A stretch of DNA of 64,000 nt from SAR202 cluster bacterium (lineage in GTDB: Bacteria; Chloroflexota; Dehalococcoidia; Lucifugimonadales; UBA6952): positions 1,633 to 65,632 of the forward strand of contig VFGE01000030.1 in NCBI GenBank assembly GCA_009392515.1. Direction: 5' to 3'. The notes beneath the pieces are model-generated. The model had not been told where the DNA came from. It saw nothing but the letters and a program-made list of their open reading frames with translations, and ran no database searches. The translations under genes were made by a program, and so were the position numbers. Shown in pieces: positions 8,054 through 43,661 of this stretch (the first letter of the stretch is position 1; every line of letters starts with the position of its first letter).

Positions 8054-9073
8054 ATGGCAATGATGCCATCAACAGAAGAAGAATTAAATGATTCTATGGC
8101 AGTAATACCAGTATTACTAGTCGAAGAAGAAGACGAAAGATATGGTCGTTTTTCTCTAGGTCCTTTAGATAGAGGTTACGGTATGACTTTAGGTAATCCA
8201 CTAAGGAGGGTTTTACTTGGTTCAATACCTGGAGCTGCCATAACTTGGGTTAAAATAGATGGTGTTTCGCATGAATATACTTCTGTTCCCCATGTTCGTG
8301 AGGAAGTTTTTGAATTATTGCTTAAATTCAAAGAAATAAGGATAAAAGCACTCTCTGATCGCCCAGGAAAATTAAGGCTAGATGTTTCTGGAGAAGGAGT
8401 AATTACAGCCGGAGATATTATGGTTCCAGGCGACTTTGAAATTGTAAATCCGGAACTGTATATTGCAACACTAGATTCTCCAGATGCTCATTTAGTTATA
8501 GAATTTAATGTTGAAAAAGGATCAGGATATATTTCAGCAAATAGTAATGAAGGGTATCCTATAGGAGTTTTGCCCGTAGATTCTATTTATACCCCAGTAT
8601 CAAAAGTTAGTTATGCAGTAGAACCAATGAGAATTGGTCAAGTTACAGATTATGAAAAGCTAATTGTTGAAATTTGGACAGATGGTACTATTATGCCATC
8701 TGAATCCCTCATCGAATCAGGTAATCTTCTAGTAAAAAGTGCAAATTTATTGACAGCAATAGGAACTAGTATTGCAGAAGGTGGGGAAGAAGAATCTTCC
8801 AGTAGTACAAATTCTTCAGTCCCTCCAGAGATTTATAATAGTCTTGTCGATGGATTAGGCTTATCAGCCAGAACTTTAAATTGTTTAAAAAGAGCTAAAC
8901 TTAATCGAGTTGGAGAAATATTAGAAAAAGATAAATCTGAACTAATGCAAATTAGAAATTTTGGACAAAAATCTATGGATGAGCTCTTCGATAAATTAAA
9001 AGAACTTAATCTTCTTCCTGAAGAAAACACTGAAAATGTAGAATCTTCAGATGACGAAGATGCTGAAGAGTAA
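8054..9073 (+). CDS. rpoA: RNA polymerase alpha subunit
   Basis: GYGMTLGNPLRRVLL, LSARTLNCLKRA, RNFGQKS. Confidence 0.98.
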   Translation: MAMMPSTEEELNDSMAVIPVLLVEEEDERYGRFSLGPLDRGYGMTLGNPLRRVLLGSIPGAAITWVKIDGVSHEYTSVPHVREEVFELLLKFKEIRIKALSDRPGKLRLDVSGEGVITAGDIMVPGDFEIVNPELYIATLDSPDAHLVIEFNVEKGSGYISANSNEGYPIGVLPVDSIYTPVSKVSYAVEPMRIGQVTDYEKLIVEIWTDGTIMPSESLIESGNLLVKSANLLTAIGTSIAEGGEEESSSSTNSSVPPEIYNSLVDGLGLSARTLNCLKRAKLNRVGEILEKDKSELMQIRNFGQKSMDELFDKLKELNLLPEENTENVESSDDEDAEE

Positions 9074-9084
9074 AGAGGTTTTAT

Positions 9085-9435
9085 ATGAGACATAGAATAA
9101 AAGGAAGACATTTTAATAGACCTGCTGATCAAAGAAAGGCATTATATCGGTCTTTAGTACGATCTGTAATTATTAACGAAAGAATTACGACTACTGAAGC
9201 AAAAGCTAAAGAAGCAAAAGCTTTAGTTGAAAAATTGATTACCTATGGTAAAAAAGGTTCTTTACATGATAGAAGACAAGCAATGTCTTTTTTACCTGAT
9301 AGTAGGGTTGTTTCGAAAGTATTTGATGATATTAGTCCTAGATATAATGAAAGAAATGGTGGTTACACCAGAGTACTTAAAATAGGAAATAGAAAAGGCG
9401 ATAATGCCCCTATGGCCATATTGGAATTGGTGTAA
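9085..9435 (+). CDS. rplQ: 50S ribosomal protein L17
   Basis: MRHR, ITTTEAKAKE, GGYTRVLK. Confidence 0.98.
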   Translation: MRHRIKGRHFNRPADQRKALYRSLVRSVIINERITTTEAKAKEAKALVEKLITYGKKGSLHDRRQAMSFLPDSRVVSKVFDDISPRYNERNGGYTRVLKIGNRKGDNAPMAILELV

Positions 9436-9445
9436 AAGGATTAGA

Positions 9446-10210
9446 ATGGATAGGAAAATCGCTTTACTAATTGAATATGATGGAACTAAGTATTATGGTT
9501 TTCAATATCAACCAAATTATCCCACAATACAAGGTGAAATTGAAAATGCATTGAATAACCTAAATCTTTCAACAGAACGAATAGAAGGTGCTGGAAGGAC
9601 AGATACAGGTGTTCATGCAAAAGGACAGATAGCATCGTTTGTAACAAATACTAATCTAAATATTAAAGATATAGAATCAGGGATAAATCATTTTCTACCA
9701 TCTGATATTGCAGTTCAGAAGGCTTACGAAACTCCAATAACCTTTAGTCCTAGAAGAGATGCTATTAGTAGAAGATATAGATATACATTTTTAAATAGGC
9801 CTACAAGATCTCCATTATCAGAAAGATATGCATATCGGGTATCCAAACATATAAATGTTGATAAAATGACAAAGGCATTGTTTGCGTTAAAAGGTACACA
9901 CGATTTTGTAAATCTTTGTGGGAAATATAATGGTAGTACAGTTAGAAATATAATGGACGTGAGTATAAATATTGATGATGAAAGACTGTACATTGATTTA
10001 GAAGCAAATGCATTCTTACCTCATCAGGTAAGAAGGACAGCAGGTCTACTTTATCAGGTTGGTTTGAATAAGTTTGATTCAGAAGAAGTTGAAAAACTCA
10101 TTGACATTGATAATCAGATTACTAGACCAAATATACCCACATTACCGGCATGTGGTTTAGTTCTATTAAAAGTTAAATACAAGGATATGTTTGAATATGA
10201 CTATTATTAA
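9446..10210 (+). CDS. truA: tRNA pseudouridine(38-40) synthase (start ATG 9446)
   Basis: EYDGT, AGRTDTGVHA catalytic Asp motif, FLPHQVR. Confidence 0.95.
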   Translation: MDRKIALLIEYDGTKYYGFQYQPNYPTIQGEIENALNNLNLSTERIEGAGRTDTGVHAKGQIASFVTNTNLNIKDIESGINHFLPSDIAVQKAYETPITFSPRRDAISRRYRYTFLNRPTRSPLSERYAYRVSKHINVDKMTKALFALKGTHDFVNLCGKYNGSTVRNIMDVSINIDDERLYIDLEANAFLPHQVRRTAGLLYQVGLNKFDSEEVEKLIDIDNQITRPNIPTLPACGLVLLKVKYKDMFEYDYY

Positions 10211-10634
10211 AAGAAAAAAAACCTATACAGCTAAAAGTGGATCTTTAGACCCAAATTGGCATTTAATTGATGCAACAGATCAACCTTTGGGTAGATTGGC
10301 TTCTAAAGTTGCCGTAATACTTCAGGGCAAAGATAAGCCAACATACACACCTAATTTATTGACAGGAGACTTTGTAGTTGTTATAAATGCCAAAGATATT
10401 GCTCTTACAGGAAATAAAATTGAGGACAAAGTTTATTATCATCATTCTGGCTATCCTGGGGGTCTTAAAGAAAGACCTTTGTCCAAGTTAATGGAAACGG
10501 TTCCAGAAAAAGTTATATACAATGCAGTAAAAGGAATGTTACCGAAGAATGCAATAGGTAGACAAATGTTTAAACGATTAAAAGTTTATCCTTCTCAAGA
10601 ACATCCACATAATTCACAAATTTCAAACAGTTAG
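10191..10634 (+). CDS. rplM: 50S ribosomal protein L13
   Basis: GRLASKVA, GDFVVVINA, HSGYPGG, KGMLPK. Confidence 0.98.
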   Translation: MNMTIIKRKKTYTAKSGSLDPNWHLIDATDQPLGRLASKVAVILQGKDKPTYTPNLLTGDFVVVINAKDIALTGNKIEDKVYYHHSGYPGGLKERPLSKLMETVPEKVIYNAVKGMLPKNAIGRQMFKRLKVYPSQEHPHNSQISNS

Positions 10635-10651
10635 AAATAGGAGACTTCATA

Positions 10652-11047
10652 ATGGCTAATGAACAGTATTACCATGGTGTTGGTAAAAGAAAAACATCTA
10701 TAGCACAGGTTAGATTATATAAAGAACCTGGTAGCGTAGTTGTCAATGGAAAACCTTTTACTGAGGCTTTTGGTTGGGATACATGGCAAACTATGATAAA
10801 TAGACCATTAGACGTCACAAATAATACGGGTAAGTGCAGCATTCAGGTAAAGGTTGCTGGCGGTGGTATAGTTAGCCAGGCTGGTGCAATTAGACATGGA
10901 ATTGCTAGAGCATTGGTAGCTATGGACGAGGAATTAAAACCAATTCTCAAAAAAAATGGGTTACTTACCAGAGATTCGAGAATCAAGGAACGAAAAAAAT
11001 ATGGGCTTAAACGCGCTCGTAAAGCTCAACAATATAGCAAGAGATAA
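10652..11047 (+). CDS. rpsI: 30S ribosomal protein S9
   Basis: GKRKTSIA, ERKKYGLKRARKAQQYSKR. Confidence 0.98.
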   Translation: MANEQYYHGVGKRKTSIAQVRLYKEPGSVVVNGKPFTEAFGWDTWQTMINRPLDVTNNTGKCSIQVKVAGGGIVSQAGAIRHGIARALVAMDEELKPILKKNGLLTRDSRIKERKKYGLKRARKAQQYSKR

Positions 11048-11071
11048 GTATAATTTTTATCAAAGATATTA

Positions 11072-12121
11072 CTATTTCGATTCGGTAATAATAGGATTAT
11101 AGTGAGGGTCTAATTCGTTAGCCATTGCTAAATAATAACTTATATGGTCACCAAGTGTTAATAAAGAAAACAGGTGCGTAAGTTTGTAATTACCAACTCC
11201 ATTTATCTCTCTATACAACAAGTCCTGTTTTTTCAATAAGCTTTTTAGTTGATTAAATTTTTTCTTTACTGATTCAGGATATAAATTTGATGTAAGTAAA
11301 ATAAAAAAGGGATTTGTTTGTTTAAAAACTTTTGATTGATAACCCTCAATAGAATTGTGAAACATTTCCGGTATATTATCTATTACAGCAATTGTTTTAC
11401 TATTTTCGTTTATTTGAGTTCTCCAACGGTTCGCTGTAGATGTAAGAAAATCCCCACTTATAATAATAGGAAGGCAGTTGAGAATTTTAGTACTAATATC
11501 CTTTGCTAGATTTTGCGAAGTTGGAATTCGAATTTGCAAACCATCAATCAAGGTTTCATTTATACTCAAACAGTCATTTATTTCTTCGTGATTAATATCA
11601 ATTAAGTTATTTTTTGAAAAAAAAGCGATAAGAGAACCTAGTACAAAGGATAAGGAGCTTCTTGCTTCGAGAGTGTTAGGTATTTCTATTAAAGGAATTT
11701 TTCGTTGCTTCGCTATATTAGTTAAATCTCCTCCTTGTGAAATGATTACTATACTAGCTTTTTGCTCAATTGAGTCATTAAACATTTTTATTGTTTCTTC
11801 TGTATTTCCTGAGTATGAACAAATAAATACCAAAGATTGCTCATTGATTGACTTAGGTGTATTCCATGTTTTAACTATTTGTGTAGGTAGCTTGAGTTGA
11901 TCTTTGACTAGATCTACAAATACTTCTCCGCCTATTCCTGATCCCCCCATTCCCATAAAGTAAATCGATGTAATATTGGGGTCAATCGCAATATTATTAA
12001 CATTTTTTGTATTAATTCCATCCTGAAATAATTCAGTTGAATTAGTTATTCTTTGGATATATTTTGTGGAATCGTATTTTTTATATATATTAAGCTGATC
12101 TAAATAATCTGAATTTCTCAA
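11072..12121 (-). CDS. Bifunctional phosphoglucose/phosphomannose isomerase (SIS fold, archaeal-type PGI/PMI)
   Basis: GMGGSGIGG, SYSGNTEET, RWRTQINENSK, PEMFHN motifs. Confidence 0.85.
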   Translation of the reverse strand: MRNSDYLDQLNIYKKYDSTKYIQRITNSTELFQDGINTKNVNNIAIDPNITSIYFMGMGGSGIGGEVFVDLVKDQLKLPTQIVKTWNTPKSINEQSLVFICSYSGNTEETIKMFNDSIEQKASIVIISQGGDLTNIAKQRKIPLIEIPNTLEARSSLSFVLGSLIAFFSKNNLIDINHEEINDCLSINETLIDGLQIRIPTSQNLAKDISTKILNCLPIIISGDFLTSTANRWRTQINENSKTIAVIDNIPEMFHNSIEGYQSKVFKQTNPFFILLTSNLYPESVKKKFNQLKSLLKKQDLLYREINGVGNYKLTHLFSLLTLGDHISYYLAMANELDPHYNPIITESK

Positions 12122-12128
12122 TAATCTC

Positions 12129-13529
12129 CTAACAAAATATGTAATCTTTTAACTCATTAATTATATTTGTAACTTCATGTTGGCTGTGCGATTCGGCATA
12201 AATTCTTATTAACGGTTCTGTTCCTGAAATTCGTATAGTACCCCAAGAATCATCTTTCAAGTAAAATTTAATACCATCCATATCAGAAGTAGATATAATT
12301 GATTTATTATCAATGCTTTCTATTGTTATATCTTGTAATTTTTTAACAATAATGGAATATTGCTTTGCTGTATAGCCAAAATCTGATCTGTCAAAAAATG
12401 TTCTACCAAATTTAGAATACATTTCATTTTTAAGTTGTTGTAAACTTTTTTTGCTTGTTGCTAATAATTCAAGGATTAGTAACGCGCTTATTATTCCATC
12501 TCTTTCAGGTACATGAAATTTAAAAGCATATCCTCCACTTTCTTCTCCAGCAATTAGTGCGTTTTGGGAAAGCATAGCCTCACATAAATGAGGAAATCCA
12601 ACAGCGGTTTCTATTATTGGGACATTGTAATATTTAGCTATTTTAGTAAATATACTTCCCATTGTTATAGAAGTAACAATCCCGCCTAATAATTTTTTAT
12701 TCTCAAATAAATGTAAAATAATAAGAGCAAAAGCTTCAGCGGTATTGATGTAATTTCCTTGACCGTCAAATAACCCAAGTCGATCAGCATCTCCATCAAA
12801 AGCAATTCCGAGATCATATTTATTCTCTAATAGTTGTGTTTGCATTTCCTCGAGATTTTTGGGTATAGGCTCTGGTTGGTTGATATCTGGAAATGAGGGG
12901 TTAGGATCTTTATGCAATTCAATGACATTTCCTCGATTATTATTAAAGAAATCGTCTAAAAAACCTATTCCTGCTCCATACATATAGTCTACAAGAATAT
13001 TTATTTTACTTGAATTAATTAACTCCAAATCAACGAAATTTTTTATATTGTCGATATAATTTGGTTTTGGATCAAAATTTGTTAATAGATTGTTTTTAGA
13101 TTTAGTTAAGATATTAGAGTTTACTTTAGATATTTCTTCTTCTACTTGCTTAATCACGTCTAAAGAAGCACTTCCACCATATTCAGACTTGTACTTTATT
13201 CCATTCCAGTTATAAGGATTGTGGCTTGATGTAACTATTAAAGCCCCACCTGCGTTTTTATCGATTACGCTAAAACTAAGAGATGGTGTTGGAGAAAATG
13301 TATTGGACAAGATGCAAGGTATTGAATTGGCGGTCAATATCTTCGCTATTTCCTTGGCATAAAAATTAGAATCTTTTCTTGTGTCGTATCCAACTATAAT
13401 TGGTTTATTGTTTTGATTTGTATTAATCAAGTAATTTGATAGACCTTGAATACATTCTCTAACTGTTTGGATATTAAATCCTTGGCCCATAATGTCACGC
13501 CAGCCATCTGTTCCAAATTTAATTTCCAA
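12129..13529 (-). CDS. Phosphoglucomutase/phosphomannomutase family protein
   Basis: FGTDGWR, TSSHNP phospho-Ser loop, DGDADR, GEESGG, RISGTEP. Confidence 0.92.
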   Translation of the reverse strand: MEIKFGTDGWRDIMGQGFNIQTVRECIQGLSNYLINTNQNNKPIIVGYDTRKDSNFYAKEIAKILTANSIPCILSNTFSPTPSLSFSVIDKNAGGALIVTSSHNPYNWNGIKYKSEYGGSASLDVIKQVEEEISKVNSNILTKSKNNLLTNFDPKPNYIDNIKNFVDLELINSSKINILVDYMYGAGIGFLDDFFNNNRGNVIELHKDPNPSFPDINQPEPIPKNLEEMQTQLLENKYDLGIAFDGDADRLGLFDGQGNYINTAEAFALIILHLFENKKLLGGIVTSITMGSIFTKIAKYYNVPIIETAVGFPHLCEAMLSQNALIAGEESGGYAFKFHVPERDGIISALLILELLATSKKSLQQLKNEMYSKFGRTFFDRSDFGYTAKQYSIIVKKLQDITIESIDNKSIISTSDMDGIKFYLKDDSWGTIRISGTEPLIRIYAESHSQHEVTNIINELKDYIFC

Positions 13530-13537
13530 AATGTCTC

Positions 13538-14740
13538 CTATAATTGCTCTTTTATTAATTTGGCAATATCAGTTGATTCCCAAGGCAAATCTAAGTCTTC
13601 TCTACCAAAATGTCCATAAGAAGCTGTGGGGGTATAAATAGGATTTCTGAGATTCATATTATTAATTATTGCCTGGGGCCTAAGATCAAAGTATGTGTTA
13701 ACAATTTCAGATATCTTTTGATCAGAAAGATGTGATGTTCCAAAAGTTTCCACACTTACGGATATGGGTTTTGCCATACCGATTGCATATGAAATTTGTA
13801 CTTCTGCTCTTTCTGCAATACCAGCAGCAACTAAATTTTTTGCCACATGTCTTGCTGCGTATGCACCAGATCTATCAACTTTTGTAGGATCTTTTCCGGA
13901 AAAAGCTCCCCCACCATGGCGGGCACTACCACCATAGGTGTCTACTAAAATCTTTCTACCTGTAAGTCCAGTATCAGCATTAGGCCCTCCTAATACAAAA
14001 AGACCCGATGGATTGATTTTTATTTCAGTAAATTCATCAATTAAAGATTCGGGTATAATGGGCTTGATTACATTTGATCGTAATTCTTTTTCTAGTTGGT
14101 CAGCTTTAACTTCTGGGCTATGTTGAGCAGAAACGATAATAGTGTGAATTCTTTTCGGTTTTCCCTGCGAGTATTCTACTGTAACCTGCGATTTTCCATC
14201 TGGCCTTAAATAATTTAAAGTGGAATTTTTCCGAACTTCAGCAAGTCTTTTTGTTAATTTGTGAGCTAGAGAGATTGGTAATGGCATTAGTTCGGGGGTT
14301 TCATTACATGCATACCCTACCATCATTCCCTGATCTCCTGCTCCAATGGTTTCATTTTCATTCTCATTTTTTGATTCTCGTGCTTCTAGAGATTTACTAA
14401 CAGCAGAAGAAATTTCTGGAGATTGTTCTTTTACTGAAACCATAACACCACATGTGTTGTAATCTATTCCAAATTCAGCATTAGTATAACCAATATTTTT
14501 TAGTGTTGATCGCACAATATCAGGAATATCCACATATGTTTTAGTAGTCATTTCGCCCATAATAATTACTAATCCTGTAGTTACGCATGTTTCACACGCT
14601 ACTCTTGCATTGGGATCTTGTGCTAATACTGAGTCTAAAATTGCATCAGATATTTGATCACAAACCTTATCAGGATGGCCTTCTGTTACAGATTCAGATG
14701 TAAACAAAAAACTATTGGAATCGTTAAAAGTAGATACCAT
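13538..14740 (-). CDS. metK: S-adenosylmethionine synthetase
   Basis: [25 protein letters not shown]. Confidence 0.98.
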
Positions 14741-14752
14741 ATCTCTCTCTTT

Positions 14753-16021
14753 CTACGTACCTGTGGTCCAGCTATGTAAGTATTTAATTTGTTCTTGAGT
14801 TAAATTGTCTATAGATACACCCATAGTAGATAATTTTAGTCTCCCTATTTCTTCATCTATTTCTTTTGGTACGTCATGGACTGAAATTGATAATGATTTA
14901 TTGAATTTAATGATATGTTCTACACATAATGCCTGATTAGCAAAACTCATATCCATTACACTAGAAGGATGGCCTTCAGCAGCGGCAAGATTTACCAAGC
15001 GGCCTTCCGCAAGTAAATTTATCTTTTTATCATTTACAGTATATTGTTCGATATATTGTCTTGTGAGTTTAGAAGATAAGGATATTTCTTGTAGTCCTGG
15101 TATATTAATTTCAACATTAAAATGCCCACTATTAGCTATAATTGCTCCGTCTTTCATATTTAACATATGATTTGTGTCAATTGCCTTAATACCTCCAGTG
15201 GCTGTGATAAACACATCTCCAACAACTGAAGCTTCCTCCATAGGCATTACGGAAAAACCATCCATTATTGCTTCTAAAGCTCTTGTGGGATTAACTTCAG
15301 TGACTATAACATTGGAACCTAATCCTCTAGCTCTTGAAGCAATACCTCTTCCACACCATCCATAGCCGGCAACCACAACTTTTCTACCAGACCAGAGTAT
15401 ATTTGTTGCTCTAGTTATTCCGTCTAATGTGCTTTGACCTGTTCCATATCGATTATCAAAAAGATGTTTTGTAGCCGCTTCATTTACTGCAATTATTGGA
15501 TATATTAATTTATTTTCACTTGATAAGGCTTTTAATCGTATAACTCCTGTAGTTGTTTCTTCAGTACCTCCAATGATTGAATTACTGTATTCTTTCGGAT
15601 TGTTATGTATTACTGATACTAAATCTGCCCCGTCATCCATAGTTATATTTGGCTTATACGACAAGGTTGCTTTTATATGTTCATAATATTTGTCATTATT
15701 TTCACCTTTGATTGCGAATGTTGATATCCCATATTCATTGACTAAAGCAGCAGCAACATCGTCTTGTGTACTTAAAGGGTTGCTAGCGCAAAGCAATACG
15801 TTTGCCCCCCCACTCTTTAAGGTAATCATTAAATTTGCAGTTTCTGTGGTTACATGTAGGCAGGCAGCTATGGTTATCCCTTTTAAGGGTTTTTCATTAA
15901 CAAACCTTGTTTTGATTGAGTTAAGCACAGGCATATCTGTTGATGCCCAATTAATTCTTTCAATTCCAACATCAGATAATTTGTGGTCTGCTATATCATT
16001 TGGTGTTAAATTAGATGCCAT
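14753..16021 (-). CDS. ahcY: Adenosylhomocysteinase (short form)
   Basis: ACLHVT, SNPLSTQD, EETTTG, KHLFDNRYGTGQS, GHPSSVMDMSF. Confidence 0.97.
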   Translation of the reverse strand: MASNLTPNDIADHKLSDVGIERINWASTDMPVLNSIKTRFVNEKPLKGITIAACLHVTTETANLMITLKSGGANVLLCASNPLSTQDDVAAALVNEYGISTFAIKGENNDKYYEHIKATLSYKPNITMDDGADLVSVIHNNPKEYSNSIIGGTEETTTGVIRLKALSSENKLIYPIIAVNEAATKHLFDNRYGTGQSTLDGITRATNILWSGRKVVVAGYGWCGRGIASRARGLGSNVIVTEVNPTRALEAIMDGFSVMPMEEASVVGDVFITATGGIKAIDTNHMLNMKDGAIIANSGHFNVEINIPGLQEISLSSKLTRQYIEQYTVNDKKINLLAEGRLVNLAAAEGHPSSVMDMSFANQALCVEHIIKFNKSLSISVHDVPKEIDEEIGRLKLSTMGVSIDNLTQEQIKYLHSWTTGT

Positions 16022-16119
16022 TCATCTCTCCTATGGAAAACTTCCGCACATGTATATGATAGTATATTTAATAACTATTTTAGTTGGACTATTATTTTCT
16101 TTTTCATGTCATAAAAAAG

Positions 16120-16431
16120 CTAAGACTTATCAGTTGGTTCTTTTTTAGTAGTAGTGGCTTTTTTAGCAGTAGTTTTTTTAGCAGTAGTTTTTTTAGTAGT
16201 AGTAGTAGCTTTTTTAGTAGTAGCTTTTTTAGTAGTAGTTTTTTTGGCAACACTAGGTTTTTTAGCAGTAGTAGGTTTTGTAACTTCAGCGACTGTTTCT
16301 AAATTATTAACACGAGAGGTTCGTGTTGGAACTCTAGTTTTTACAACTGGATTTTCTAACCTTGTTTTTATCTGTAGTTTATTAGCCCTTTTTCGTCTTT
16401 TCATCAAAGATACGCGTTTTGTTTTATTCAC
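16120..16431 (-). CDS. Basic Lys/Thr/Ala-repeat, histone-H1-like protein
   Basis: Basic N-terminus MNKTKRVSLMKRRKRANK plus KKTT/KKAT repeats; GAGG upstream of start. Confidence 0.7.
   Translation of the reverse strand: MNKTKRVSLMKRRKRANKLQIKTRLENPVVKTRVPTRTSRVNNLETVAEVTKPTTAKKPSVAKKTTTKKATTKKATTTTKKTTAKKTTAKKATTTKKEPTDKS
16136..16270 (-). repeat. Low-complexity coding repeat (KKxTT-type units)
   Basis: Plus-strand runs such as tttttagtagtag and tttttagcagtag recur through this interval. Confidence 0.85.
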
Positions 16432-16460
16432 GATTGATTACCTCACTTCTAGTTAATTAA

Positions 16461-16796
16461 TTACTCTGCTGGGTAGCCCTTGGCTATCCAAGAGGGAGTT
16501 CCTTCTTCTATATTAAACAGTCTTTCTGATTCTATACCAACAGATGCTGCTAATTCACACGCCAAGGCACTTCTTACTCCTGCTGCACAAATGAATAATA
16601 ATGACCCAGAATCTGGCAGTTGATCAACTTTAGAAAGAATTTCATCAACTGGTATATGTATTGCATTCTTAACATGGCCACTATCCCATTCGTCTTGTTG
16701 CCTAACATCAACAACTGTACATTCTTCACTATCAATTTTTTCTTTTGCTTTATCTATAGTGATTCTTTGGAATGGTTCCCCTGTATTAGAACTCAT
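16461..16796 (-). CDS. Single-domain rhodanese/sulfurtransferase
   Basis: VVDVRQQDEWDSGHVKNAIHIP; active-site loop CAAGVRS. Confidence 0.88.
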   Translation of the reverse strand: MSSNTGEPFQRITIDKAKEKIDSEECTVVDVRQQDEWDSGHVKNAIHIPVDEILSKVDQLPDSGSLLFICAAGVRSALACELAASVGIESERLFNIEEGTPSWIAKGYPAE

Positions 16797-16827
16797 AAAA
16801 TTCTCCTTTTATTATTTATAAACTTCA

Positions 16828-17847
16828 CTAAAAAGTATTATTGAATGGTGGATATATTATACCAGACTCGGTAATAAATCCAGAAATATTTTCATGTGGG
16901 GTTATATCTGTTGTTATATTTGTCACAGAGATGGACTTAGGTGCTATCTCTGAATCATTAATATGTATAACTTCATTTCTGTTGCGTTCTTCGATTGGCA
17001 ATGAAGCTCCGTTTGCTGATTCTATATCAATTATTGATGTCGGGGCGGCAACATAAAATGGAACATTGTTTTGCTTCGCGATTACGCTTAGAGAATAAGT
17101 TCCTATTTCATTTGCAAAATCGCCATTTTTAGCTATCCTTTGAGCTCCTACAATAACAGAATCTATTTTTTTATTTATCATCATAAAACCTGCTGCTGAA
17201 TCGACAATTAAGTTTGTTGGTATGCCTAGTTGTGCTAATTCCCAAGTAGTAAGTCTTGCCCCATGTAAGAATGGCCTAGTTTCTGTGACGACCACATTGA
17301 TATTTTTCTTGGATTCATGGGCTTTTCGTATTATACCTAGAGCTGTCCCATATCCTGAAGTTGATAGTGCACCAGTATTACCATGGGTTAATATTGTTTG
17401 TCCGGTAGATATTAGATTTTCACCTAAATTTACTATTCGATAGTTAATTGATAGATCCTCTTTATGTATTTTTTCTGCTTCTTTTTGCACAAAATCTTTC
17501 ATTTCTTGCACAGTTGAGAGTGAATTTAATTTATCAAAAATTTTATATGTAACTTTTAATAAGCTATCCATAGATGGTCGAGAATTTATAATTTCATGAA
17601 TGACATTTTCTAGATATTCTAAAAATTTTTGAACATCATTAGTAGAAACACTCTTTGCAGCTAAAGTTAAAGCATATGCAGCTGCAATGCTAAGTATAGA
17701 TCCACCTCTAATAGACATAGATTTAATACTGTCTAGTACATCAATATAGTTGTTAGCAATAATCACTGCTTGTTCTTTTGGAAGTTTAGTCTGGTCAAGT
17801 ATTTTTAATCGTTCATTTGACCATTCTAAAGGGTAAATTTCTGGCAT
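16828..17847 (-). CDS. MtnA/eIF-2B family protein with substituted catalytic residues (probable pseudoenzyme)
   Basis: Aligns along its length to methylthioribose-1-P isomerase (LDQTKLP, GYGTALG, ETRP..GARLT.WEL, IEER, DITP) but reads THGN, GAQR, ANEIG. Confidence 0.85.
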   Translation of the reverse strand: MPEIYPLEWSNERLKILDQTKLPKEQAVIIANNYIDVLDSIKSMSIRGGSILSIAAAYALTLAAKSVSTNDVQKFLEYLENVIHEIINSRPSMDSLLKVTYKIFDKLNSLSTVQEMKDFVQKEAEKIHKEDLSINYRIVNLGENLISTGQTILTHGNTGALSTSGYGTALGIIRKAHESKKNINVVVTETRPFLHGARLTTWELAQLGIPTNLIVDSAAGFMMINKKIDSVIVGAQRIAKNGDFANEIGTYSLSVIAKQNNVPFYVAAPTSIIDIESANGASLPIEERNRNEVIHINDSEIAPKSISVTNITTDITPHENISGFITESGIIYPPFNNTF

Positions 17848-17859
17848 ATCTCCCTTTCT

Positions 17860-18915
17860 CTAATATACAACAATAGATCTCCCAAGAATTTCCCCATTAG
17901 AAAGTGATTGGTATGCTTCATTAATTTCATCAAATTTATATCGTTTGGTGATTAGTTTGTCGAGAGGGAACTGCCCATTTTTATACCAATCTAGGAACAT
18001 GGGGAAATCGGTATCAGGATATGTAGCCCCTAAACTTCCTTTGTAAAGTCTTTGCCCACCAACAAACAATCTGGGTGGAATGGACATTGTGTGATTCCCG
18101 TGTGGCAATCCTATTAAGACAGCTGTTCCTCCAAGATTATTTGCTCCAGAACCGCCTGATCTTGTAGATTCAAGAATTTGCTCATTAGTGATTTTCACAC
18201 CAATTGCATCGAATGCGTAATCTACTCCTCCATTTGTGATGTCTTTAATTTGTTCAATTGGATCGTTTTGAGAAGCATTGATTAAATGTGTTGCTCCAAA
18301 TTCTTGCGCAAATTTTAATTTTTCATCATCTAGGTCAACTGCAATTACTGGATTTGCTTTGCTAATAGAAGCAGCTTGTATGGCGCATAATCCAACTCCG
18401 CCAACTCCAAATACTGCAACTGATTCCCCAGGTTTTACTTGTGCGGTATTTATTACTGCCCCCGCACCTGTTAAAACTGCACATCCAACAATACAGGATA
18501 TATCTGTTGGATATTCCTTATCAATCGGTACAACATAATCACTATTTGTTAATACATCTTCTCCTAATGTGTAAACATTTCCATTAACCGGGATTTCATG
18601 ATATGAAGCACCACTAAGTTCGGCAGGTATAGACCCTTGTGTTTCGACCCGCTTAACCCATGTAACGATTACATGGTCTCCTTCAGAAACATGAGAAACA
18701 TTTTTTCCTGTTTTTGTGACAAATCCAGTGCCTTCATGACCAAGCACAAGTGGTCTAGGGAGGTTTGGATTTGCCATTTGGTGAAGTTGGGAATGGCATA
18801 CACCGCTAGAATACATTTTTACTATTACTTGGTTTTCTCTAGGATCAGGAATTTCTAAATCTACAAGTTCCAAAGGTCCATCTAAGGTGAATTGAACAGC
18901 TGCTTTTGTTTTCAA
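17860..18915 (-). CDS. Zinc-dependent medium-chain alcohol dehydrogenase
   Basis: GVCHS, LGHEG, GCAVLTG, GVGGVG; TTG start with AAGGAG. Confidence 0.88.
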   Translation of the reverse strand: MKTKAAVQFTLDGPLELVDLEIPDPRENQVIVKMYSSGVCHSQLHQMANPNLPRPLVLGHEGTGFVTKTGKNVSHVSEGDHVIVTWVKRVETQGSIPAELSGASYHEIPVNGNVYTLGEDVLTNSDYVVPIDKEYPTDISCIVGCAVLTGAGAVINTAQVKPGESVAVFGVGGVGLCAIQAASISKANPVIAVDLDDEKLKFAQEFGATHLINASQNDPIEQIKDITNGGVDYAFDAIGVKITNEQILESTRSGGSGANNLGGTAVLIGLPHGNHTMSIPPRLFVGGQRLYKGSLGATYPDTDFPMFLDWYKNGQFPLDKLITKRYKFDEINEAYQSLSNGEILGRSIVVY

Positions 18916-19041
18916 ATTAACTCCTTGTAAAAATAAAATTGCATGTAAATTATGACTGAGGAATTTGGGATCATCATTATAACATAAAAAGTCTGGTTTT
19001 AATCTATTTTGTTGTTATTGGAGGCGTTAATTTTTCTAATC

Positions 19042-19070
19042 TTGACACAACTTTATATAGGTAATAATAT
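19042..19070 (+). promoter_or_regulatory. Sigma70-type promoter of groESL
   Basis: TTGACA-N17-TAATAT. Confidence 0.65.
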
Positions 19071-19147
19071 ATCAGTCTGATCAGCTAGTGGAGTGTCCGT
19101 TTGCTGATTTTGTACGCAAAGTTGTTATTGTATTTAAGGAGGAAAAT

Positions 19148-19441
19148 GTGAACCGATCTTTTCAACCACTTGGCGATAGAGTAGTTGTAAAACCTATCGA
19201 GAAAGAAGAAGTAACTAGTTCAGGGTTAGTGCTACCAGATACTGCAAAAGAGAAACCACAGGAAGGTGAAATTGTTGCAGTGGGAAGAGGTAGGGTAACA
19301 GATGATGGTAAAACTATTGAACTTGAAGTAAAAGTTGGAGATATAGTTGTATATTCAAAGTACGCTGGAACTGAACTCAAAGAAGAAGGCGAGGATTATT
19401 TAGTACTCAGGGAGTCAGATATACTTGCTAAAGTAGGATAA
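19148..19441 (+). CDS. groES: Co-chaperonin GroES (start GTG 19148)
   Basis: [33 protein letters not shown]; AAGGAGG RBS. Confidence 0.97.
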
Positions 19442-19465
19442 TTCATTAGGTAATAGAAAAAATAA

Positions 19466-21097
<1,632 letters not shown>

Positions 21098-21123
21098 TAC
21101 ACTGGATTAACAATAAATACATC

Positions 21124-21161
21124 AATAGAGGGTACTCAAAATATTATGAGTACCCTCTATT
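21124..21161 (+). terminator. 15-bp stem hairpin after groEL
   Basis: aatagagggtactca-N8-tgagtaccctctatt perfect inverted repeat. Confidence 0.8.
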
Positions 21162-21259
21162 TGTAAAAAACGTCTTTATTATTCATGTTCTTTTATTGTA
21201 AATAACAATTTGCTGAGTGATACTATCAGGCAATAAAGAAAAAGCAGTGGAGGATTTAT

Positions 21260-22432
21260 ATGACAGATTTGCGCAAATCGGCTGCAATTGTAGGCGCTTA
21301 TGAACACCCGGTTAGATATGCTCCTGACAAAAGCGAAACTTTAATAATGGCAGAGAGTATTATTGGTGCTTTAGCAGATGCAGGATTAGAAAAAAAAGAT
21401 GTAGATGCTATTTTTAGCGCTGGCGGTTTGAGTGGATATAATTTGGTAGATTATCTCAATATGCAACCTAAATATGCAGATTTTACAACTGTTGGAGGTG
21501 CATCTTTTGAATTTCATTTGTCTCATGCAGTTACTGCCATTGCTGCAGGAAGAATCAATTGTGCTGTTATAGTATATGCATCAACTCCACGCGTAACTGG
21601 TACTTTAGTAGGAACAGGTGGATTTGCTCGATATGGTTCAAGTCTTTCAGATCCCGTACCAGGAAGTTTTGAAGACCTATATGGAAAAACAACAGTTGGA
21701 TTATATGCAATGATTGCTAGAAGACATATGCATCAGTACGGAACAACCAGTGAACAGTTGGCAGAAGTTGCAGTGGCTATGAGAAAACATGCAGGATTAA
21801 ATCCCAATGCACTATTTCGAGATCCGATAACTGTTGAAGATGTATTGGCGTCAAGAATCATTTCAGATCCATTGCATTTGAATGATTGTTGTATTATTTC
21901 TGATGGTGGAGGTGCTGTCGTTGTAGCCTCTCCAGAGGTTGCAAGAAATTGTAAAACAAAACCTGCATGGGTGTTGGGTATGGCGGAAGCTATAGCACAT
22001 CAGGGTGCTGGCAAAAGAGATTTGATTAACATAGCTGCGGCACAAACCGGAGCCCCTGCGATGGAAATGGCAGGAGTAAAACATAAAGATTTAGATATGG
22101 CTATGATTTATGATTCATTTACCATTACTGTTGTCGAAACTTTAGAAGATTTAGGGTTTTGTAAAAAAGGCGAAGGTGGAGATTTTGTAAGTGGTGGAAG
22201 AATTGAACTGGGAGGGGAATTGCCATTGAATCCTGACGGGGGAGGGCTTTCTTCTAATCATCCAGGTATGAGAGGTATGTTTTTACTTATTGAGGCCACT
22301 AGGCAGCTTAGAGGAGATTTTGCAGGTACTCCAAGACAAGTGGAAAATTGCAATCTTGTATTAGCACATGGAACAGGCGGTGCATTAGGTGATAGACATA
22401 GCGGTGGTACGATTATTCTAGGAGGTGATTAG
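21260..22432 (+). CDS. Thiolase-superfamily protein (SCP2/Ltp2-like, Cys-less active site)
   Basis: CCIISDGGGAVVV, MIYDSFT, NPDGGGLS..HP, AHGTGG. Confidence 0.85.
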   Translation: MTDLRKSAAIVGAYEHPVRYAPDKSETLIMAESIIGALADAGLEKKDVDAIFSAGGLSGYNLVDYLNMQPKYADFTTVGGASFEFHLSHAVTAIAAGRINCAVIVYASTPRVTGTLVGTGGFARYGSSLSDPVPGSFEDLYGKTTVGLYAMIARRHMHQYGTTSEQLAEVAVAMRKHAGLNPNALFRDPITVEDVLASRIISDPLHLNDCCIISDGGGAVVVASPEVARNCKTKPAWVLGMAEAIAHQGAGKRDLINIAAAQTGAPAMEMAGVKHKDLDMAMIYDSFTITVVETLEDLGFCKKGEGGDFVSGGRIELGGELPLNPDGGGLSSNHPGMRGMFLLIEATRQLRGDFAGTPRQVENCNLVLAHGTGGALGDRHSGGTIILGGD

Positions 22433-22846
22433 ATGGTAAATCAAATTCAATGGAAAAAACCATTACCTACAGTGACAGGTGAAACTAGAAAATTTTGGGA
22501 TGCTGCAAGAAAAGGGCATTTAATGATTCAGCATTGTGAATCTTGTGGATATCAATGGTATCCGAGGGGGTTTTGTTCAGGGTGTTGGTCTAAGGATATA
22601 GAATATGTTGAGGCTAAAGGTACTGGAAAGGTTTGGACATATACAGTCACTTATCAAAACAGGACTCCTGGATTTAACGAAGATGTTCCGTACGTATTAG
22701 CGTTGGTTGAACTTGATGAGGGTGTTAAATTATTTTCAAATATTATAAATTGTGACCCTAAAAGTGTCACAATTGGTATGGATGTAAAAGTAACGTTTGT
22801 TCAAGCAACAAATGAAATTCATGTACCTATGTTTGAACCTTTATAA
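22433..22846 (+). CDS. Zn-ribbon/OB-fold DUF35 protein (acyl-CoA-associated)
   Basis: QHCESCG..YPRGFCSGC, GTGKVWTYTV, PYVLALVELDEG. Confidence 0.9.
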   Translation: MVNQIQWKKPLPTVTGETRKFWDAARKGHLMIQHCESCGYQWYPRGFCSGCWSKDIEYVEAKGTGKVWTYTVTYQNRTPGFNEDVPYVLALVELDEGVKLFSNIINCDPKSVTIGMDVKVTFVQATNEIHVPMFEPL

Positions 22847-23338
22847 CCAATTTGGCTGGTCTACAGTCATTTTTTGACTTTTGATATTTACATCAACAAT
22901 TACTGATTTTATAGCTGGTACGAGTACTTCTTCATTATTATCAGTTGTTATAACGTAAACATCATTTGCACCAGTAGTAAGAATATTTGATATTCTACCC
23001 AGATATTGTTTGTTAACGTTGAATACATTTATACCAATTAATTCATAATAATAATAAGTATCGTTTTGCTGTGGCGGGGTTTGTGAAGGCTTTACGTAAA
23101 TATATTTCTCTTTAAGTGTTTTTGCTTTTTCTGGAGTGTTATAACCATCGAGTAGTAAAATGTAATACCACTTTTGTTTAGAAGATTTTTGTATTAATAC
23201 CTCTTGGTTATTAATTATTATTTTGTTGCCAGTGGTGAAACGGGACTTAATATCAGACAGGGGTCTTACTTTTATTTGCCCCTTGACTCCAAAAATGGAA
23301 AAAATCTGACCAACAGCAACAAGATCTGATTCCATCAT
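22841..23338 (-). CDS. rimM: 16S rRNA processing protein RimM
   Basis: VGQI..IFGVKGQIKV, TGANDVYVI, LVPAIK. Confidence 0.93.
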   Translation of the reverse strand: MMESDLVAVGQIFSIFGVKGQIKVRPLSDIKSRFTTGNKIIINNQEVLIQKSSKQKWYYILLLDGYNTPEKAKTLKEKYIYVKPSQTPPQQNDTYYYYELIGINVFNVNKQYLGRISNILTTGANDVYVITTDNNEEVLVPAIKSVIVDVNIKSQKMTVDQPNWL

Positions 23339-23345
23339 TTAAACT

Positions 23346-23576
23346 TTAGAGAATTTCTAAATTAACTCTGGTTCCTGCTTTAACTGCAGCTACTCTTAAG
23401 AGAACTCTTATTGCTTGAGCAACTCTTCCCTCGCGGCCTATCAGTTTTCCTTTATCTTCTTCAGCAACTGTGAGTTTAAGAATAACTTTCCCTTCGTCGT
23501 CCTCTTCTTCCTCTACTATTACCTCGTCAGGGTTACTAGCTAAGGATTTTGCGATGTATTCAACAAGTTCTTTCAT
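23346..23576 (-). CDS. khpA: KH-domain RNA-binding protein (KhpA/YlqC)
   Basis: MKELVEYIAKSL, DKGKLIGREGR; lies between rpsP and rimM. Confidence 0.9.
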   Translation of the reverse strand: MKELVEYIAKSLASNPDEVIVEEEEDDEGKVILKLTVAEEDKGKLIGREGRVAQAIRVLLRVAAVKAGTRVNLEIL

Positions 23577-23590
23577 AATAAACCAATCCT

Positions 23591-23830
23591 CTATTCTTTT
23601 GTAGTTTGGTTAAGAATACTTTTCATTGCATCAGAGGGCTGAGCTCCTTTAGCAATCCATTCATCTATTTTACTATGGTTTAAGTTAATTGTTGGGGGGT
23701 CAGTTTTTGGGTCATATGTGCCGACGAGCTCAATGAATGCTCCATCTCTTGGAGATCGAGAATCAGCAACCACAACTCTGTATGAAGGTTGTTTTTTTGC
23801 TCCAACACGTTTCAATCTTATTTTTAGCAT
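23591..23830 (-). CDS. rpsP: 30S ribosomal protein S16
   Basis: [25 protein letters not shown]. Confidence 0.98.
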
Positions 23831-23867
23831 TTAAAACCTTATAATTACTATATGAGCTAGAAAGAAA

Positions 23868-23896
23868 ATTCTATCTTTGTTCCTCGTTATTGTCAA
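23868..23896 (-). promoter_or_regulatory. Near-consensus sigma70 promoter of rpsP-khpA-rimM
   Basis: Minus strand TTGACA-N17-TAGAAT. Confidence 0.7.
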
Positions 23897-23953
23897 ACTT
23901 GTGCATATTTTTGCATTGTGTTAGGTTTAATTTAAATTTGCGAGGGGATTAAA

Positions 23954-25159
23954 TTGCTAAATTCATTAAAAAATCCAATGGTTTTTTTACTAACCTCTAT
24001 ATTAGTCTTGAGCTTAGTTCCGTTTTCTACTTTTGTTGCCGCTATACCCTTAATTGAAAACCAGTGGGAATTGATCAATACCGAGGTTGGAGCAATTAGC
24101 GGTGTATATTTTTTGGGATATGTTTTAGGTGCAATTTTATTGGTCCCTATGTCAGATAAATATTCAACGAAAAATACATTCTTTTTTGCTGTTTGTGTAT
24201 CATCATTTTCACACTTAGCTTTTAGTATTTTTGCGAATGGATTATTCTCAGCTTTATTATTGAGGTTCATAAGTGGAGCATCATTTTCTGCTATATATGT
24301 CATTGGTCAAAAAATTATTGGGCAAAACATATCTGCTGAATTGAGGGGTTCTTCAATTGGATTATATGTAACAGGATTTTATGCAGGTAGTGGTATTTCA
24401 TTATTACTAGCTGGTTATTTATTACTTCTTTTTTCTTGGGAAACAGTTTATTTATTGGTTTCTTGTATTTCTATTATTAGTATATTATTAGGATTAATTT
24501 TTATAATTAAAATTGATCTTCTTCCAACAAACCCTGGTTCCGCGTTACTGAATCTTAAGGTTTTACTAAACAAAAGACTATTTGTTGCTTCATTTAGTTA
24601 CGCAATGCATGCATGGGAATTATATATAATGAGAATGTGGTTTCCAGTATTTTTGGCATATTTATATATAGAATCTGGCTCGGAATTGAATTCTAGTGCT
24701 GCATTAGCATCTACGATAGCTGGAATTATAGCTATTGTCGCATCGTTTACGCCTCTTTTAGGTGCATCATATTCTGATGGTAAAAATAGAGCAAAAATAG
24801 CAATATTTATACTTGCTATAAGTAGTGTTCTTTCTTTACTCATAGGTTTAACAGTTTTATTACCAATAATATTTGCTATTATTATCGGGTTCATTTGGAC
24901 GCTTTTTGTAGGTTCTGATTCAGCAATATACACTACGTTGATCACAGAAAATGCACAACCTGAAGAGCTGTCATCTAGTTTAGCTGTACATACAGTATTT
25001 GCTTTTGGGACAGCAGCAATTTCACCATTAATATTTGGGGTAATACTAGATGTTTTCGGAAGAAACGAATTAGGATGGTTTGTAGGGTTTTTTACATCTT
25101 CAATATGTGCATTATTTGCTATGATGTTTTTATATTTGGTCTATGTTCGTAAAGAGTAA
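23954..25159 (+). CDS. MFS transporter
   Basis: About 12 hydrophobic segments; PMSDKYSTK and ASYSDGKNR motif-A-like loops. Confidence 0.85.
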   Translation: MLNSLKNPMVFLLTSILVLSLVPFSTFVAAIPLIENQWELINTEVGAISGVYFLGYVLGAILLVPMSDKYSTKNTFFFAVCVSSFSHLAFSIFANGLFSALLLRFISGASFSAIYVIGQKIIGQNISAELRGSSIGLYVTGFYAGSGISLLLAGYLLLLFSWETVYLLVSCISIISILLGLIFIIKIDLLPTNPGSALLNLKVLLNKRLFVASFSYAMHAWELYIMRMWFPVFLAYLYIESGSELNSSAALASTIAGIIAIVASFTPLLGASYSDGKNRAKIAIFILAISSVLSLLIGLTVLLPIIFAIIIGFIWTLFVGSDSAIYTTLITENAQPEELSSSLAVHTVFAFGTAAISPLIFGVILDVFGRNELGWFVGFFTSSICALFAMMFLYLVYVRKE

Positions 25160-43152: not shown

Positions 43153-43593
43153 ATGCTTATGTCTATGATAGATGGGTTAGAGCGTCCAGTGCCAGTTCCG
43201 TTTGATTGGGCAAAACCTTTTTGGGATGCCGCTAATGAAAGAAAATTAGTAGTACAAAATTGTGGTAGTTGTGGTATTAATCATTACCCTCCTAAAGAAA
43301 AATGCAATAATTGTGATACTACTGAACCATTAGGATGGAAAGAAGTAGAAGGCAAGGGCCATATTGACGTCTATTTGGTAATAAAAGATTCACGAATCAA
43401 AGGATTTAGAGGCGCACAGCCAATAAATTTCGCAATTATTACTTTGGATGAAGATCCTGGTTTAAATTTTCTTTCTAACCTTCCTGGGACTCCTGCTGGA
43501 GAAGTACCTGTAGGAGCTGCAGTTGAAGTTATATTTGATGAATCAGTTGAGGTTGGTAGACAACTCGTTCCAGAGTGGCGAGTAATAGGATAA
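43153..43593 (+). CDS. Zn-ribbon/OB-fold DUF35 protein
   Basis: PFWDAA, QNCGSCG..YPP..KCNNC, VGAAVEVIF. Confidence 0.88.
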   Translation: MLMSMIDGLERPVPVPFDWAKPFWDAANERKLVVQNCGSCGINHYPPKEKCNNCDTTEPLGWKEVEGKGHIDVYLVIKDSRIKGFRGAQPINFAIITLDEDPGLNFLSNLPGTPAGEVPVGAAVEVIFDESVEVGRQLVPEWRVIG

Positions 43594-43661
43594 TTTAATA
43601 ACTATAAATATTTGCTTAATCAAGCAATAGATCTGTATTGAGGCAAGAAAGGAATTATGTC

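Follow-up and report, generated by a model that had tools for sequence, protein, structure and literature searches.

Analysis of a 64-kb stretch of DNA from a SAR202 cluster bacterium (contig VFGE01000030.1; the whole stretch is called the window hereafter) has revealed an MtnA-like gene at positions 16828..17847 of the (-) strand that encodes a 339-amino-acid (aa) protein with the PF01008 fold and no cysteine over its full length, in which both the catalytic Cys and the catalytic Asp of MtnA, the methylthioribose-1-phosphate (MTR-1-P) isomerase, are replaced. This protein is probably a conserved non-catalytic MtnA derivative that arose with the loss of mtnP, the gene for methylthioadenosine (MTA) phosphorylase, and one of several independent cases. 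As judged from sequence comparisons, the balance tilts slightly towards an mtnA orthologue that would have turned into a pseudoenzyme maintained by selection, left behind after MTA phosphorolysis was lost. Since the protein departs from MtnA in the catalytic Cys, the catalytic Asp, the phosphate ligands and the pathway context, it should not be labelled a functional MtnA, and automated pipelines that call it a working isomerase are probably in error. In the literature, no account was found of a bacterial Cys-less MtnA, of MtnA as a pseudoenzyme or of M1Pi in Dehalococcoidia.

Family assignment and active-site residues

The uninterrupted 339-aa open reading frame (ORF) with a ribosome-binding site that had been described in the original prediction was recovered in this analysis. 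A Shine-Dalgarno-like sequence, AAAGGGAG, read directly on the (-) strand at 17850..17857, lies just 5' of the ATG at 17847, within the 12-nt spacer that separates this start codon from the stop codon (17862-17860) of an upstream zinc-type alcohol dehydrogenase (ADH) gene.

The encoded protein belongs to the MtnA lineage by fold, hidden Markov model (HMM) score and synteny. It matched the Pfam family IF-2B (E=2e-79), scored 358.8 bits with the mtnA equivalog TIGR00512 (cut-off 279) and 362.2 bits with NF004326 (cut-off 271), and also passed the PRK05720 cut-off, with an identity of 40-42% to the solved MtnAs. The score obtained with TIGR00511 (ribose-1,5-bisphosphate isomerase, R15P isomerase) fell below its threshold (187.4 bits vs a cut-off of 314.1), and no affiliation with the eIF2B/aIF2B group was found, as PRK08335 gave 116 bits (cut-off 339), PRK06372 gave 41 bits (cut-off 249) and the PDB-search E-values for this group were 1e-18 to 1e-21 vs 1e-79 for MtnA. 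One close relative carries the JGI label 'methylthioribose-1-phosphate isomerase'. With the equivalog threshold passed, metabolic reconstructions would wrongly credit abundant surface-ocean Dehalococcoidia with MTA salvage.

An AlphaFold2 model built from a 58-sequence alignment (pLDDT 92.7, pTM 0.90) displayed the MtnA-type N-terminal beta-sheet, with strands at residues 7-31. The top PDB match of this model was the product complex of Bacillus subtilis MtnA (2YVK; TM 0.92, 40% identity), followed by other MtnAs and then by R15P isomerases and eIF2B subunits, and the retention of the MtnA scaffold proposed earlier is thus borne out by the predicted structure of the protein alone.

Motifs were compared through HMMER alignments to the MtnAs of T. 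maritima (1T9K), A. fulgidus (1T5O) and B. subtilis (2YRF), which were ungapped across all motifs; B. subtilis numbering corresponds to 2YRF minus its 21-residue tag. All the motif changes listed in the original prediction were confirmed by the three alignments: RGAPAIG, RPTAxNL, THCNAG, LQGARLT, GADRIA, ANKIGT and NPAFD of MtnA read RGGSILS, RPSMDSL, THGNTG, LHGARLT, GAQRIA, ANEIGT and NITTD, respectively, in the window protein. At the catalytic Cys site (B. subtilis Cys160), which is Cys in 144/150 diverse representatives, the codon GGT at 17380..17382 (-) encodes Gly156, and at the catalytic Asp site (Asp240), which is Asp in 146/150 of them, the codon CAA at 17140..17142 (-) encodes Gln236; both codons had been located correctly before. 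Within the clade of close relatives described below, position 156 is Gly in 13/13 sequences, and position 236 is His in two sequences and Gln otherwise.

Four residues of the R15P isomerase PH0208, the counterparts of Arg47, Arg90, Gln195 and Lys247, bind the 1-phosphate (PMC5789824). The two arginines are kept in the window protein, Arg47 (17707..17709 (-); B. subtilis Arg51, PH0208 Arg22) within the altered RGGSILS segment and Arg90 (17578..17580 (-); B. subtilis Arg94, PH0208 Arg65) within RPSMDSL. The phosphate-binding Gln (B. subtilis Gln199) is His195 (codon CAT, 17263..17265 (-)) in the window protein and His in most of the clade, with the ancestral Gln retained in a sub-lineage of 75% identity. 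The phosphate/sugar-binding Lys (B. subtilis Lys251, PH0208 Lys215) is Glu247 (codon GAA, 17107..17109 (-)), and is Glu throughout the clade. The NITTD segment (16906..16920 (-)) keeps the Asn and Asp of NPAFD, with Pro-Ala-Phe changed to Ile-Thr-Thr in every clade member. Besides G156, E247 and ITT311-313, the residues S50, S92, S95, N320 and F324 were found in 13/13 clade sequences.

The earlier statement that the whole active site had been rewritten is an overstatement, since the change is only partial. Near-invariant positions were defined as the 120 sites conserved at 95% or more among 108 canonical relatives. Ninety-two of these 120 positions are unchanged in every clade sequence, including both phosphate-binding arginines, and only 17 were replaced on the clade stem (positions 40, 49-51, 92, 93, 95, 99, 156, 236, 247, 254, 311-313, 320 and 324), 13 of them being fixed at one new residue. 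The other 11 positions are altered in part of the clade only, Q195H and G53S among them. The changed sites fall in motif segments that touch the substrate in homologues, and the retained residues include R47, G48, R90, T154, H155, N157, G159, D243, N246, N310 and D314.

The C135S and D204N mutants of R15P isomerase bind the substrate without turning it over (PMC5789824). Because these equivalent mutants of a homologous isomerase are inactive, the loss of the canonical isomerase chemistry can be soundly inferred, and to this extent the description of the protein as catalytically dead stands; an enzyme re-tooled around Glu247 is a less likely alternative that is weighed below.

Other explanations for the substitution pattern were considered and discarded. 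A compensatory covariation between positions 195 and 236 (Q195 and H236 in P0009, H195 and Q236 in other sequences) was ruled out because both sites are Gln in two members of the 75% sub-lineage, L027 and L028; the pattern fits a stepwise change from Asp to His to Gln, plus a separate change from Gln to His. The AT mutational bias of the genome was rejected as the cause of the substitutions, given that TGY to GGT and AAR to GAA both oppose it. A relocation of the catalytic Cys within the protein is excluded by the lack of any Cys, and the Cys of the neighbouring rhodanese was discarded as a specific compensation because the rhodanese gene adjoins canonical mtnA loci too. A first variability test, according to which the rewritten sites were as free as unconstrained sites, was dropped because its class definition biased the result. 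In the corrected test, variability was 24% at stem-changed sites, 11% at still-canonical sites and 44% at weakly conserved sites, neither difference being significant.

Conservation in the clade and loss of mtnP

A search of 5.8 billion protein clusters revealed a tight clade around the window protein (P0001-P0009, 75-100% identity), below which there is a gap down to the canonical MtnAs of Dehalococcoidia/Chloroflexi at about 51% identity. Extra members were added from genome and metagenome scans, giving a total of 13 distinct protein sequences that are 74-100% identical. They come from independent marine metagenomes, metagenome-assembled genomes and one single-cell genome (GCA_902531995.1), and include three GTDB species representatives labelled Dehalococcoidia (ALOHA_A2.5_17, LRMED-149 and binchicken_co46_686). 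The source DNA of all clade members has a GC content of 34-36%.

The ORFs are intact and equal in length across 13+ clade sequences. Ratios of nonsynonymous to synonymous substitution rates (dN/dS), calculated by the Nei-Gojobori method, were 0.11-0.16 for the MtnA-like gene at dS 0.34-0.63, 0.06-0.21 in shallow pairs and 0.11 when the window was compared with the 75% sub-lineage (dS ~1.4). For the neighbouring genes in the same genome pairs the values were 0.05-0.07 for AhcY and MetK, 0.05-0.11 for the rhodanese, 0.13-0.18 for the phosphoglucomutase/phosphomannomutase (PGM/PMM) and 0.16-0.23 for the phosphoglucose isomerase (PGI). The MtnA-like gene is therefore under the kind of constraint usual for a metabolic gene, with values near those of PGM and PGI. 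The substitutions are conserved across relatives with dN/dS well under 1, as had been anticipated, and are not private changes with a ratio near 1 that would denote simple decay. The loss of essential catalytic residues in a gene kept under purifying selection corresponds to the operational definition of a pseudoenzyme.

Comparison with related genomes indicates how this state coincides with the loss of mtnP. Canonical MtnA, with THCNxG and GADR motifs, is encoded at four related high-GC Dehalococcoidia loci (L006, L007, L033 and L034), where the gene order is mtnA-mtnP-rhodanese-basic protein-(pfkB)-ahcY-metK-pgm, beside rpsI-rplM-truA-rplQ-rpoA as in the window. The mtnP gene overlaps the 3' end of mtnA by 8 nt in 4/4 of these loci. 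In the degenerate lineages (the window clade, P0010/P0011 and P0121), the mtnA-like gene is followed directly by the rhodanese gene, with no mtnP, in 3/3 cases, and the association between canonical MtnA with mtnP (4/4 loci) and degenerate MtnA without it (3/3 lineages) gave a Fisher p=0.029. The rhodanese is a constant neighbour of mtnA(-mtnP) in every relative examined, and the adjacency of the ADH and MtnA-like genes is specific to the degenerate-MtnA clade, in all contigs of which the gene order is identical. The block position shared with L006, L007, L033 and L034 identifies the window gene as the positional orthologue of mtnA, with mtnP deleted, and not as an extra paralogue.

The original prediction stated that the window has no MTA phosphorylase, MTR kinase or MtnB gene, and this has been borne out: PNP_UDP_1, APH, Aldolase_II and other methionine-salvage families were absent from the sizeable window ORFs that were scanned or covered by synteny with the locus L001, and no MtnP homologue was detected by tblastn in the 64 kb. 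There is no methionine-salvage gene in the clade loci either. A second canonical MtnA of the same low-GC lineage was sought by AT-rich composition among 108 canonical hits and none was found, which is weak negative evidence; the FYMINK/GARP ratio was at most 1.31 in these hits vs 1.7-1.9 in the clade. The loci L030/L031, whose MtnA is 36-37% identical to the window protein and lies beside mtnP, were discarded as a second canonical copy because they belong to a 27%-GC organism of another lineage. In L030 (2316-5059), an unrelated marine contig that came up in the pattern scan and serves for contrast only, a canonical mtnP is followed by a PhyH-like gene and then by mtnA (THCNAG, GTDR, CNKIG).

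The MtnA-like gene had also been placed in an S-adenosylmethionine-cycle gene block. Both ahcY and metK are indeed found downstream on the same strand, but the link is loose, as one sub-lineage has lost ahcY yet keeps the MtnA-like gene. In this 75% sub-lineage (L026-L028), ahcY is reduced at this location to a frame-broken relic of ~150 nt (L027 5707-6031, also in L026 and L028; window ahcY 14753-16021), which consists of two frame-shifted fragments covering AhcY residues 16-64 only and sits in the 325-nt gap between the basic-protein gene and metK, and the MtnA-like ORF is full length. In these organisms the S-adenosylhomocysteine (SAH) hydrolase gene has either been relocated or SAH is handled otherwise. 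The role of the MtnA-like protein is thus not dependent on ahcY in cis. Furthermore, the clean excision of mtnP and the ahcY relic show a lineage that discards dispensable genes, which makes the retention of the MtnA-like gene more meaningful.

Cys-less homologues and possible roles of the protein

The loss of the catalytic Cys is not restricted to the window clade, and the residue is absent in 6/150 of the best 50%-identity cluster representatives (~4%). Two of the additional Cys-less lineages belong to the same syntenic block. In P0010/P0011 (57% GC), Gly (GGC) or Ser (AGC) stands in for the Cys, the other site residues are nearly intact, and the dN/dS was 0.158 vs 0.13-0.19 for the neighbouring genes; in P0121, the Cys is replaced by Ser and R90, H155, Q195, N246 and K247 have also been lost. 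In a bootstrapped neighbour-joining tree, P0010/P0011 nested with the canonical P0012 in 199/200 replicates and were never sister to the window clade, which argues that their losses are independent of it. Four-taxon site counts on the neighbouring genes, used to ask whether a single loss event underlies the window lineage and L005, were set aside, as the counts of 21/26/21 did not separate the alternatives; the MtnA tree favoured independence.

The other Cys-less MtnA-like clusters (P0010/P0011, P0121, P0193, P0216, P0254, P0265 and P0268) resemble the window protein in the positions that have been eroded (156, 95, 247, 50, 93, 90, 195, 236 and 313) and in the frequent acidic residues at 195/247; they differ from it in being independent lineages, 35-51% identical to the window protein, with other replacement residues and other contexts. 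Considering the eight Cys-less lineages together, positions 156 and 95 are changed in 8/8, position 247 in 7/8, positions 50 and 93 in 6/8, and positions 90, 195, 236 and 313 in 5/8 each. At positions 195 and 247, which bind phosphate, 8/13 replacements introduced an acidic residue (binomial p=0.006 even at 25% expectation). A proportion of about 4% Cys-less representatives with the same erosion and a frequent acidic gain at the phosphate site points to a general and undescribed trajectory of the family.

Two of these clusters display further peculiarities. In P0216 (L035 128-4028), the Cys site is occupied by Ser and the Asp site by Cys. The gene is separated by 12 nt from a preceding class II aldolase gene and overlaps one for RelA/SpoT, and the protein may represent an alternative active-site arrangement in a pair resembling the dihydroxyacetone phosphate (DHAP) shunt. 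P0268 (509 aa; THGNTG, GAER, ANDIG) is extended at its N-terminus by 110 residues that include a twin-arginine-like signal (RRRFFRSF), and this MtnA-fold protein may be exported in its organism.

The proteins of the block form a graded series: canonical mtnA with mtnP; mtnP gone and the Cys alone replaced; a pocket that is rewritten in part and under purifying selection; and, last, a pocket with heavy erosion. Regulatory pseudoenzymes, such as the eIF2B subunits, are already known to have come from the PF01008 superfamily, and with this series the transition from enzyme to pseudoenzyme becomes open to experiment by means of soluble bacterial proteins and simple back-mutations.

According to the mechanism favoured here, the isomerase function would have ended in a streamlined low-GC marine Dehalococcoidia lineage upon deletion of the translationally coupled mtnP. 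The protein would no longer turn over MTR-1-P and would have been kept for a role that is independent of catalysis and was probably present in the canonical enzyme already; as independent lineages take the same course after the loss of mtnP, we infer that MtnA had such a second role in these organisms, now retained. The most likely role would be that of a homodimeric binding or partner protein. Judging from the ligand contacts of homologues, the carboxylate of Glu247 could replace the substrate phosphate between Arg47 and Arg90 and hold the inter-domain pocket closed, and the repeated appearance of a carboxylate where phosphate binds suggests that such a residue acts as an internal mimic of phosphate, pairing with both arginines and favouring the closed state. 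The gene is probably co-transcribed with the upstream ADH gene and the downstream rhodanese gene, and the constant rhodanese neighbour and the clade-specific ADH are candidate partners. A more specific proposal is that a hidden catalysis-independent function of MtnA in these Dehalococcoidia has been exposed repeatedly by mtnP loss, that a carboxylate (Glu247, or Glu/Asp195 elsewhere) replaces the phosphate and locks the closed state, and that the rhodanese or another protein is the probable partner; it is made tentatively and considered possible, though somewhat doubtful. If true, it would provide a recent and repeated bacterial example of the transition from enzyme to regulatory subunit that lies behind eIF2B alpha/beta/delta, with living intermediates from the Cys-only loss of P0010/P0011 to the window clade and then to P0121.

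Several observations weigh against a pseudoenzyme. The fixation of 13/17 stem changes and the invariance of the polar pocket (R47, R90, H155, N157, D243, N246, N310 and D314) fit a pocket that still binds, and possibly still catalyses, something. Glu247 is chemically plausible as a replacement base; M. tuberculosis RpiB has a Glu where E. coli RpiB has a Cys. The arrangement in P0216, with a Cys at the Asp site and a class II aldolase gene beside it, looks like an alternative and not a dead active site, and, as the negative result for mtnP covers the 64-kb window and the clade loci and that for a second canonical mtnA covers 108 canonical hits, either gene may lie elsewhere in the genome. The protein might then be a re-tooled enzyme that carries out an aldose-ketose or related reaction on a non-methylthio substrate, with Glu247 as new general base helped by His195/His236 where present, Arg47/Arg90 still holding a phosphate, and the polar NITTD segment and N320 accepting a hydroxylated or charged 5-substituent. 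To the fixed substitutions and invariant polar residues, this explanation can add that Glu247 is fixed in 13/13 sequences, that acidic replacements at 195/247 recur in independent Cys-less lineages, that the Aldolase_II gene 12 nt upstream gives P0216 a pathway-like context, and that the ADH gene present clade-wide 12 nt upstream is reminiscent of the step in the DHAP shunt at which an aldehyde is reduced (PMC10986504). However, positions 195 and 236 are not fixed, and no His is available at either of them in L027 and L028; the window contains no phosphorylase, kinase or aldolase to feed or drain the reaction; a carboxylate near the phosphate site should weaken the binding of a 1-phosphate substrate; and the additional loss of R90, H155 and N246 in P0121 makes it less likely that these lineages share a function that depends on the pocket. 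A re-tooled enzyme is regarded as rather unlikely, although it is the chief alternative.

The annotation would be essentially right if the protein were still a (weak) isomerase of MTR-1-P or 5-deoxyribose-1-phosphate, supplied with substrate by an MTA nucleosidase and a kinase or by an mtnP located elsewhere. The TIGR00512 and PRK05720 cut-offs are passed, the protein retains the fold, both arginines and most of the residues that bind the sugar, and the search for salvage genes was limited to the window and the clade loci; nevertheless, this is very unlikely, with both catalytic residues gone and no Cys in the whole protein, the equivalent single mutants of the homologous isomerase inactive (PMC5789824), the phosphate-binding Lys changed to Glu, and mtnP loss coinciding with degeneration in three lineages. 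A decaying relic of an inactivated pathway, open by chance or because its removal would disturb downstream expression, would be consistent with the absence of the partner gene, with the 11 near-invariant positions changed in part of the clade, which denote continuing erosion, and with the heavier erosion of P0121. This explanation has been largely refuted by the dN/dS values, which stay at 0.06-0.21 at all depths to dS ~1.4, and it is most improbable also in view of the 13+ intact ORFs of equal length, the 92/120 near-invariant positions left untouched, and the clean removal of mtnP and reduction of ahcY in one sub-lineage, which indicate that dispensable genes do not linger.

The pseudoenzyme reading can be set against known systems. 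Bacterial MtnA/M1Pi (EC 5.3.1.23; 2YVK/2YRF, 1T9K) shares with the window protein the fold, Arg47, Arg90, the THxN, ETRP and NGD motifs and N246, and differs from it in that the window protein has Cys160 changed to Gly, Asp240 to Gln/His, Gln199 to His and Lys251 to Glu, together with degraded RGAPAIG and RPTAxNL motifs and no mtnP. The R15P isomerases (T. kodakarensis 3A11, P. horikoshii PH0208) have a homologous active site, and the change of Cys to Ser in P0011 is a natural mirror of the C135S mutation; oligomeric state and substrate are different, and the changes in the window protein are natural and multiple. The human MtnA orthologue MRI1/MRDI (4LDQ) reportedly moonlights in Rho-dependent invasion, a role apart from its isomerase activity; unlike the window protein, to which it is 33% identical, this eukaryotic protein keeps the catalytic residues and is an active enzyme. 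The eIF2B alpha/beta/delta subunits and archaeal aIF2B are, like the window protein, PF01008 proteins that keep the fold without the isomerase catalytic residues, and in eIF2B-alpha the Cys position is Ala or Gly (Gly in S. pombe) and a sugar-phosphate pocket is conserved (PMC5789824, PMC4787765). However, the ligands that remain in eIF2B-alpha are those of the 5-phosphate and the sugar, those of the 1-phosphate having been lost, while the window protein keeps two 1-phosphate arginines; both groups are phylogenetically distant (structural TM 0.6-0.76), and the window protein derives recently from within one bacterial order. To our knowledge, no eIF2 partner or homologue is expected in bacteria. 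The likeness to eIF2B/aIF2B is in kind only and is not a sequence affiliation, and the 'regulatory or scaffold' role and the eIF2B parallel of the original prediction are to be taken as analogies.

Neighbouring genes in the window

The MtnA-like gene is included in a cluster of eight co-oriented genes with short spacers, from ADH to PGI, which is flanked by a divergent groES and a convergent rpsI. The zinc-type ADH gene (17860-18915 (-)) lies 12 nt upstream of the MtnA-like gene. A single-domain rhodanese with the active-site loop CAAGVRS is encoded 31 nt downstream (16461-16796 (-)), followed by a small, very basic, low-complexity protein starting with MNKTKRV (16120-16431 (-)), whose N-terminus is conserved across the Dehalococcoidia syntenic block. 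Then come ahcY (14753-16021 (-)), metK (13538-14740 (-)), a PGM/PMM-family gene (12129-13529 (-)) and a bacterial PGI-family gene (11072-12121 (-)), these last four genes (11072..16021) being on the same strand with 7-12 nt spacers. A riboswitch or another structured RNA preceding ahcY or metK was looked for with Rfam, which gave no match at E<=1 within 9000-24000, and promoter and terminator scans were uninformative, with fewer matches than in shuffled sequence.

The ADH keeps the catalytic-zinc motifs GVCHSQ, GHEGTG and GCAVLTG, and a deletion of ~24 residues has removed the four-cysteine structural-zinc lobe (query 90-98 vs 88-120 in 8H2A). The protein scores far under every NCBIfam equivalog cut-off; it is called as 370 aa by some gene callers, but the window permits 351 aa only. 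In the basic protein, the N-terminus MNK[RT]KRV..LK.R.R... is followed by Lys/Thr/Ala- or Arg/Ala-rich repeats, and its gene comes after the rhodanese gene in all lineages. The protein has no Pfam match; its counterparts are at L005 11529-12137, L006 10422-11120 and L007 10386-10775. The repeats also give rise to an antisense ORF, 16154-16456(+), as a by-product.

The PGM/PMM protein has diverged far beyond its neighbours, being only 39-42% identical to its high-GC syntenic counterparts, which are themselves 70-77% alike. All its catalytic motifs (TSSHNP, DGDADR, GEESGG and SGTEP) are intact, and a change of specificity or a non-orthologous replacement is possible. Outside the cluster, the groEL genes of L009 (2136-3746) and L001 (6753-8363), which correspond to 19472-21097 in the window, encode 100% identical proteins with a dS of 0.019, compared with 0.39-0.50 for the flanking genes, a pattern that suggests recent homologous recombination between the L009 and L001 lineages. 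Finally, the window contains two separate pairs of genes encoding a thiolase-like protein (Thiolase_C_1) and a ChsH2-type OB-fold/zinc-ribbon protein (21260-22846 and 43153-44951), the first of which is extremely conserved in the clade, with a dN/dS of 0.002-0.02.

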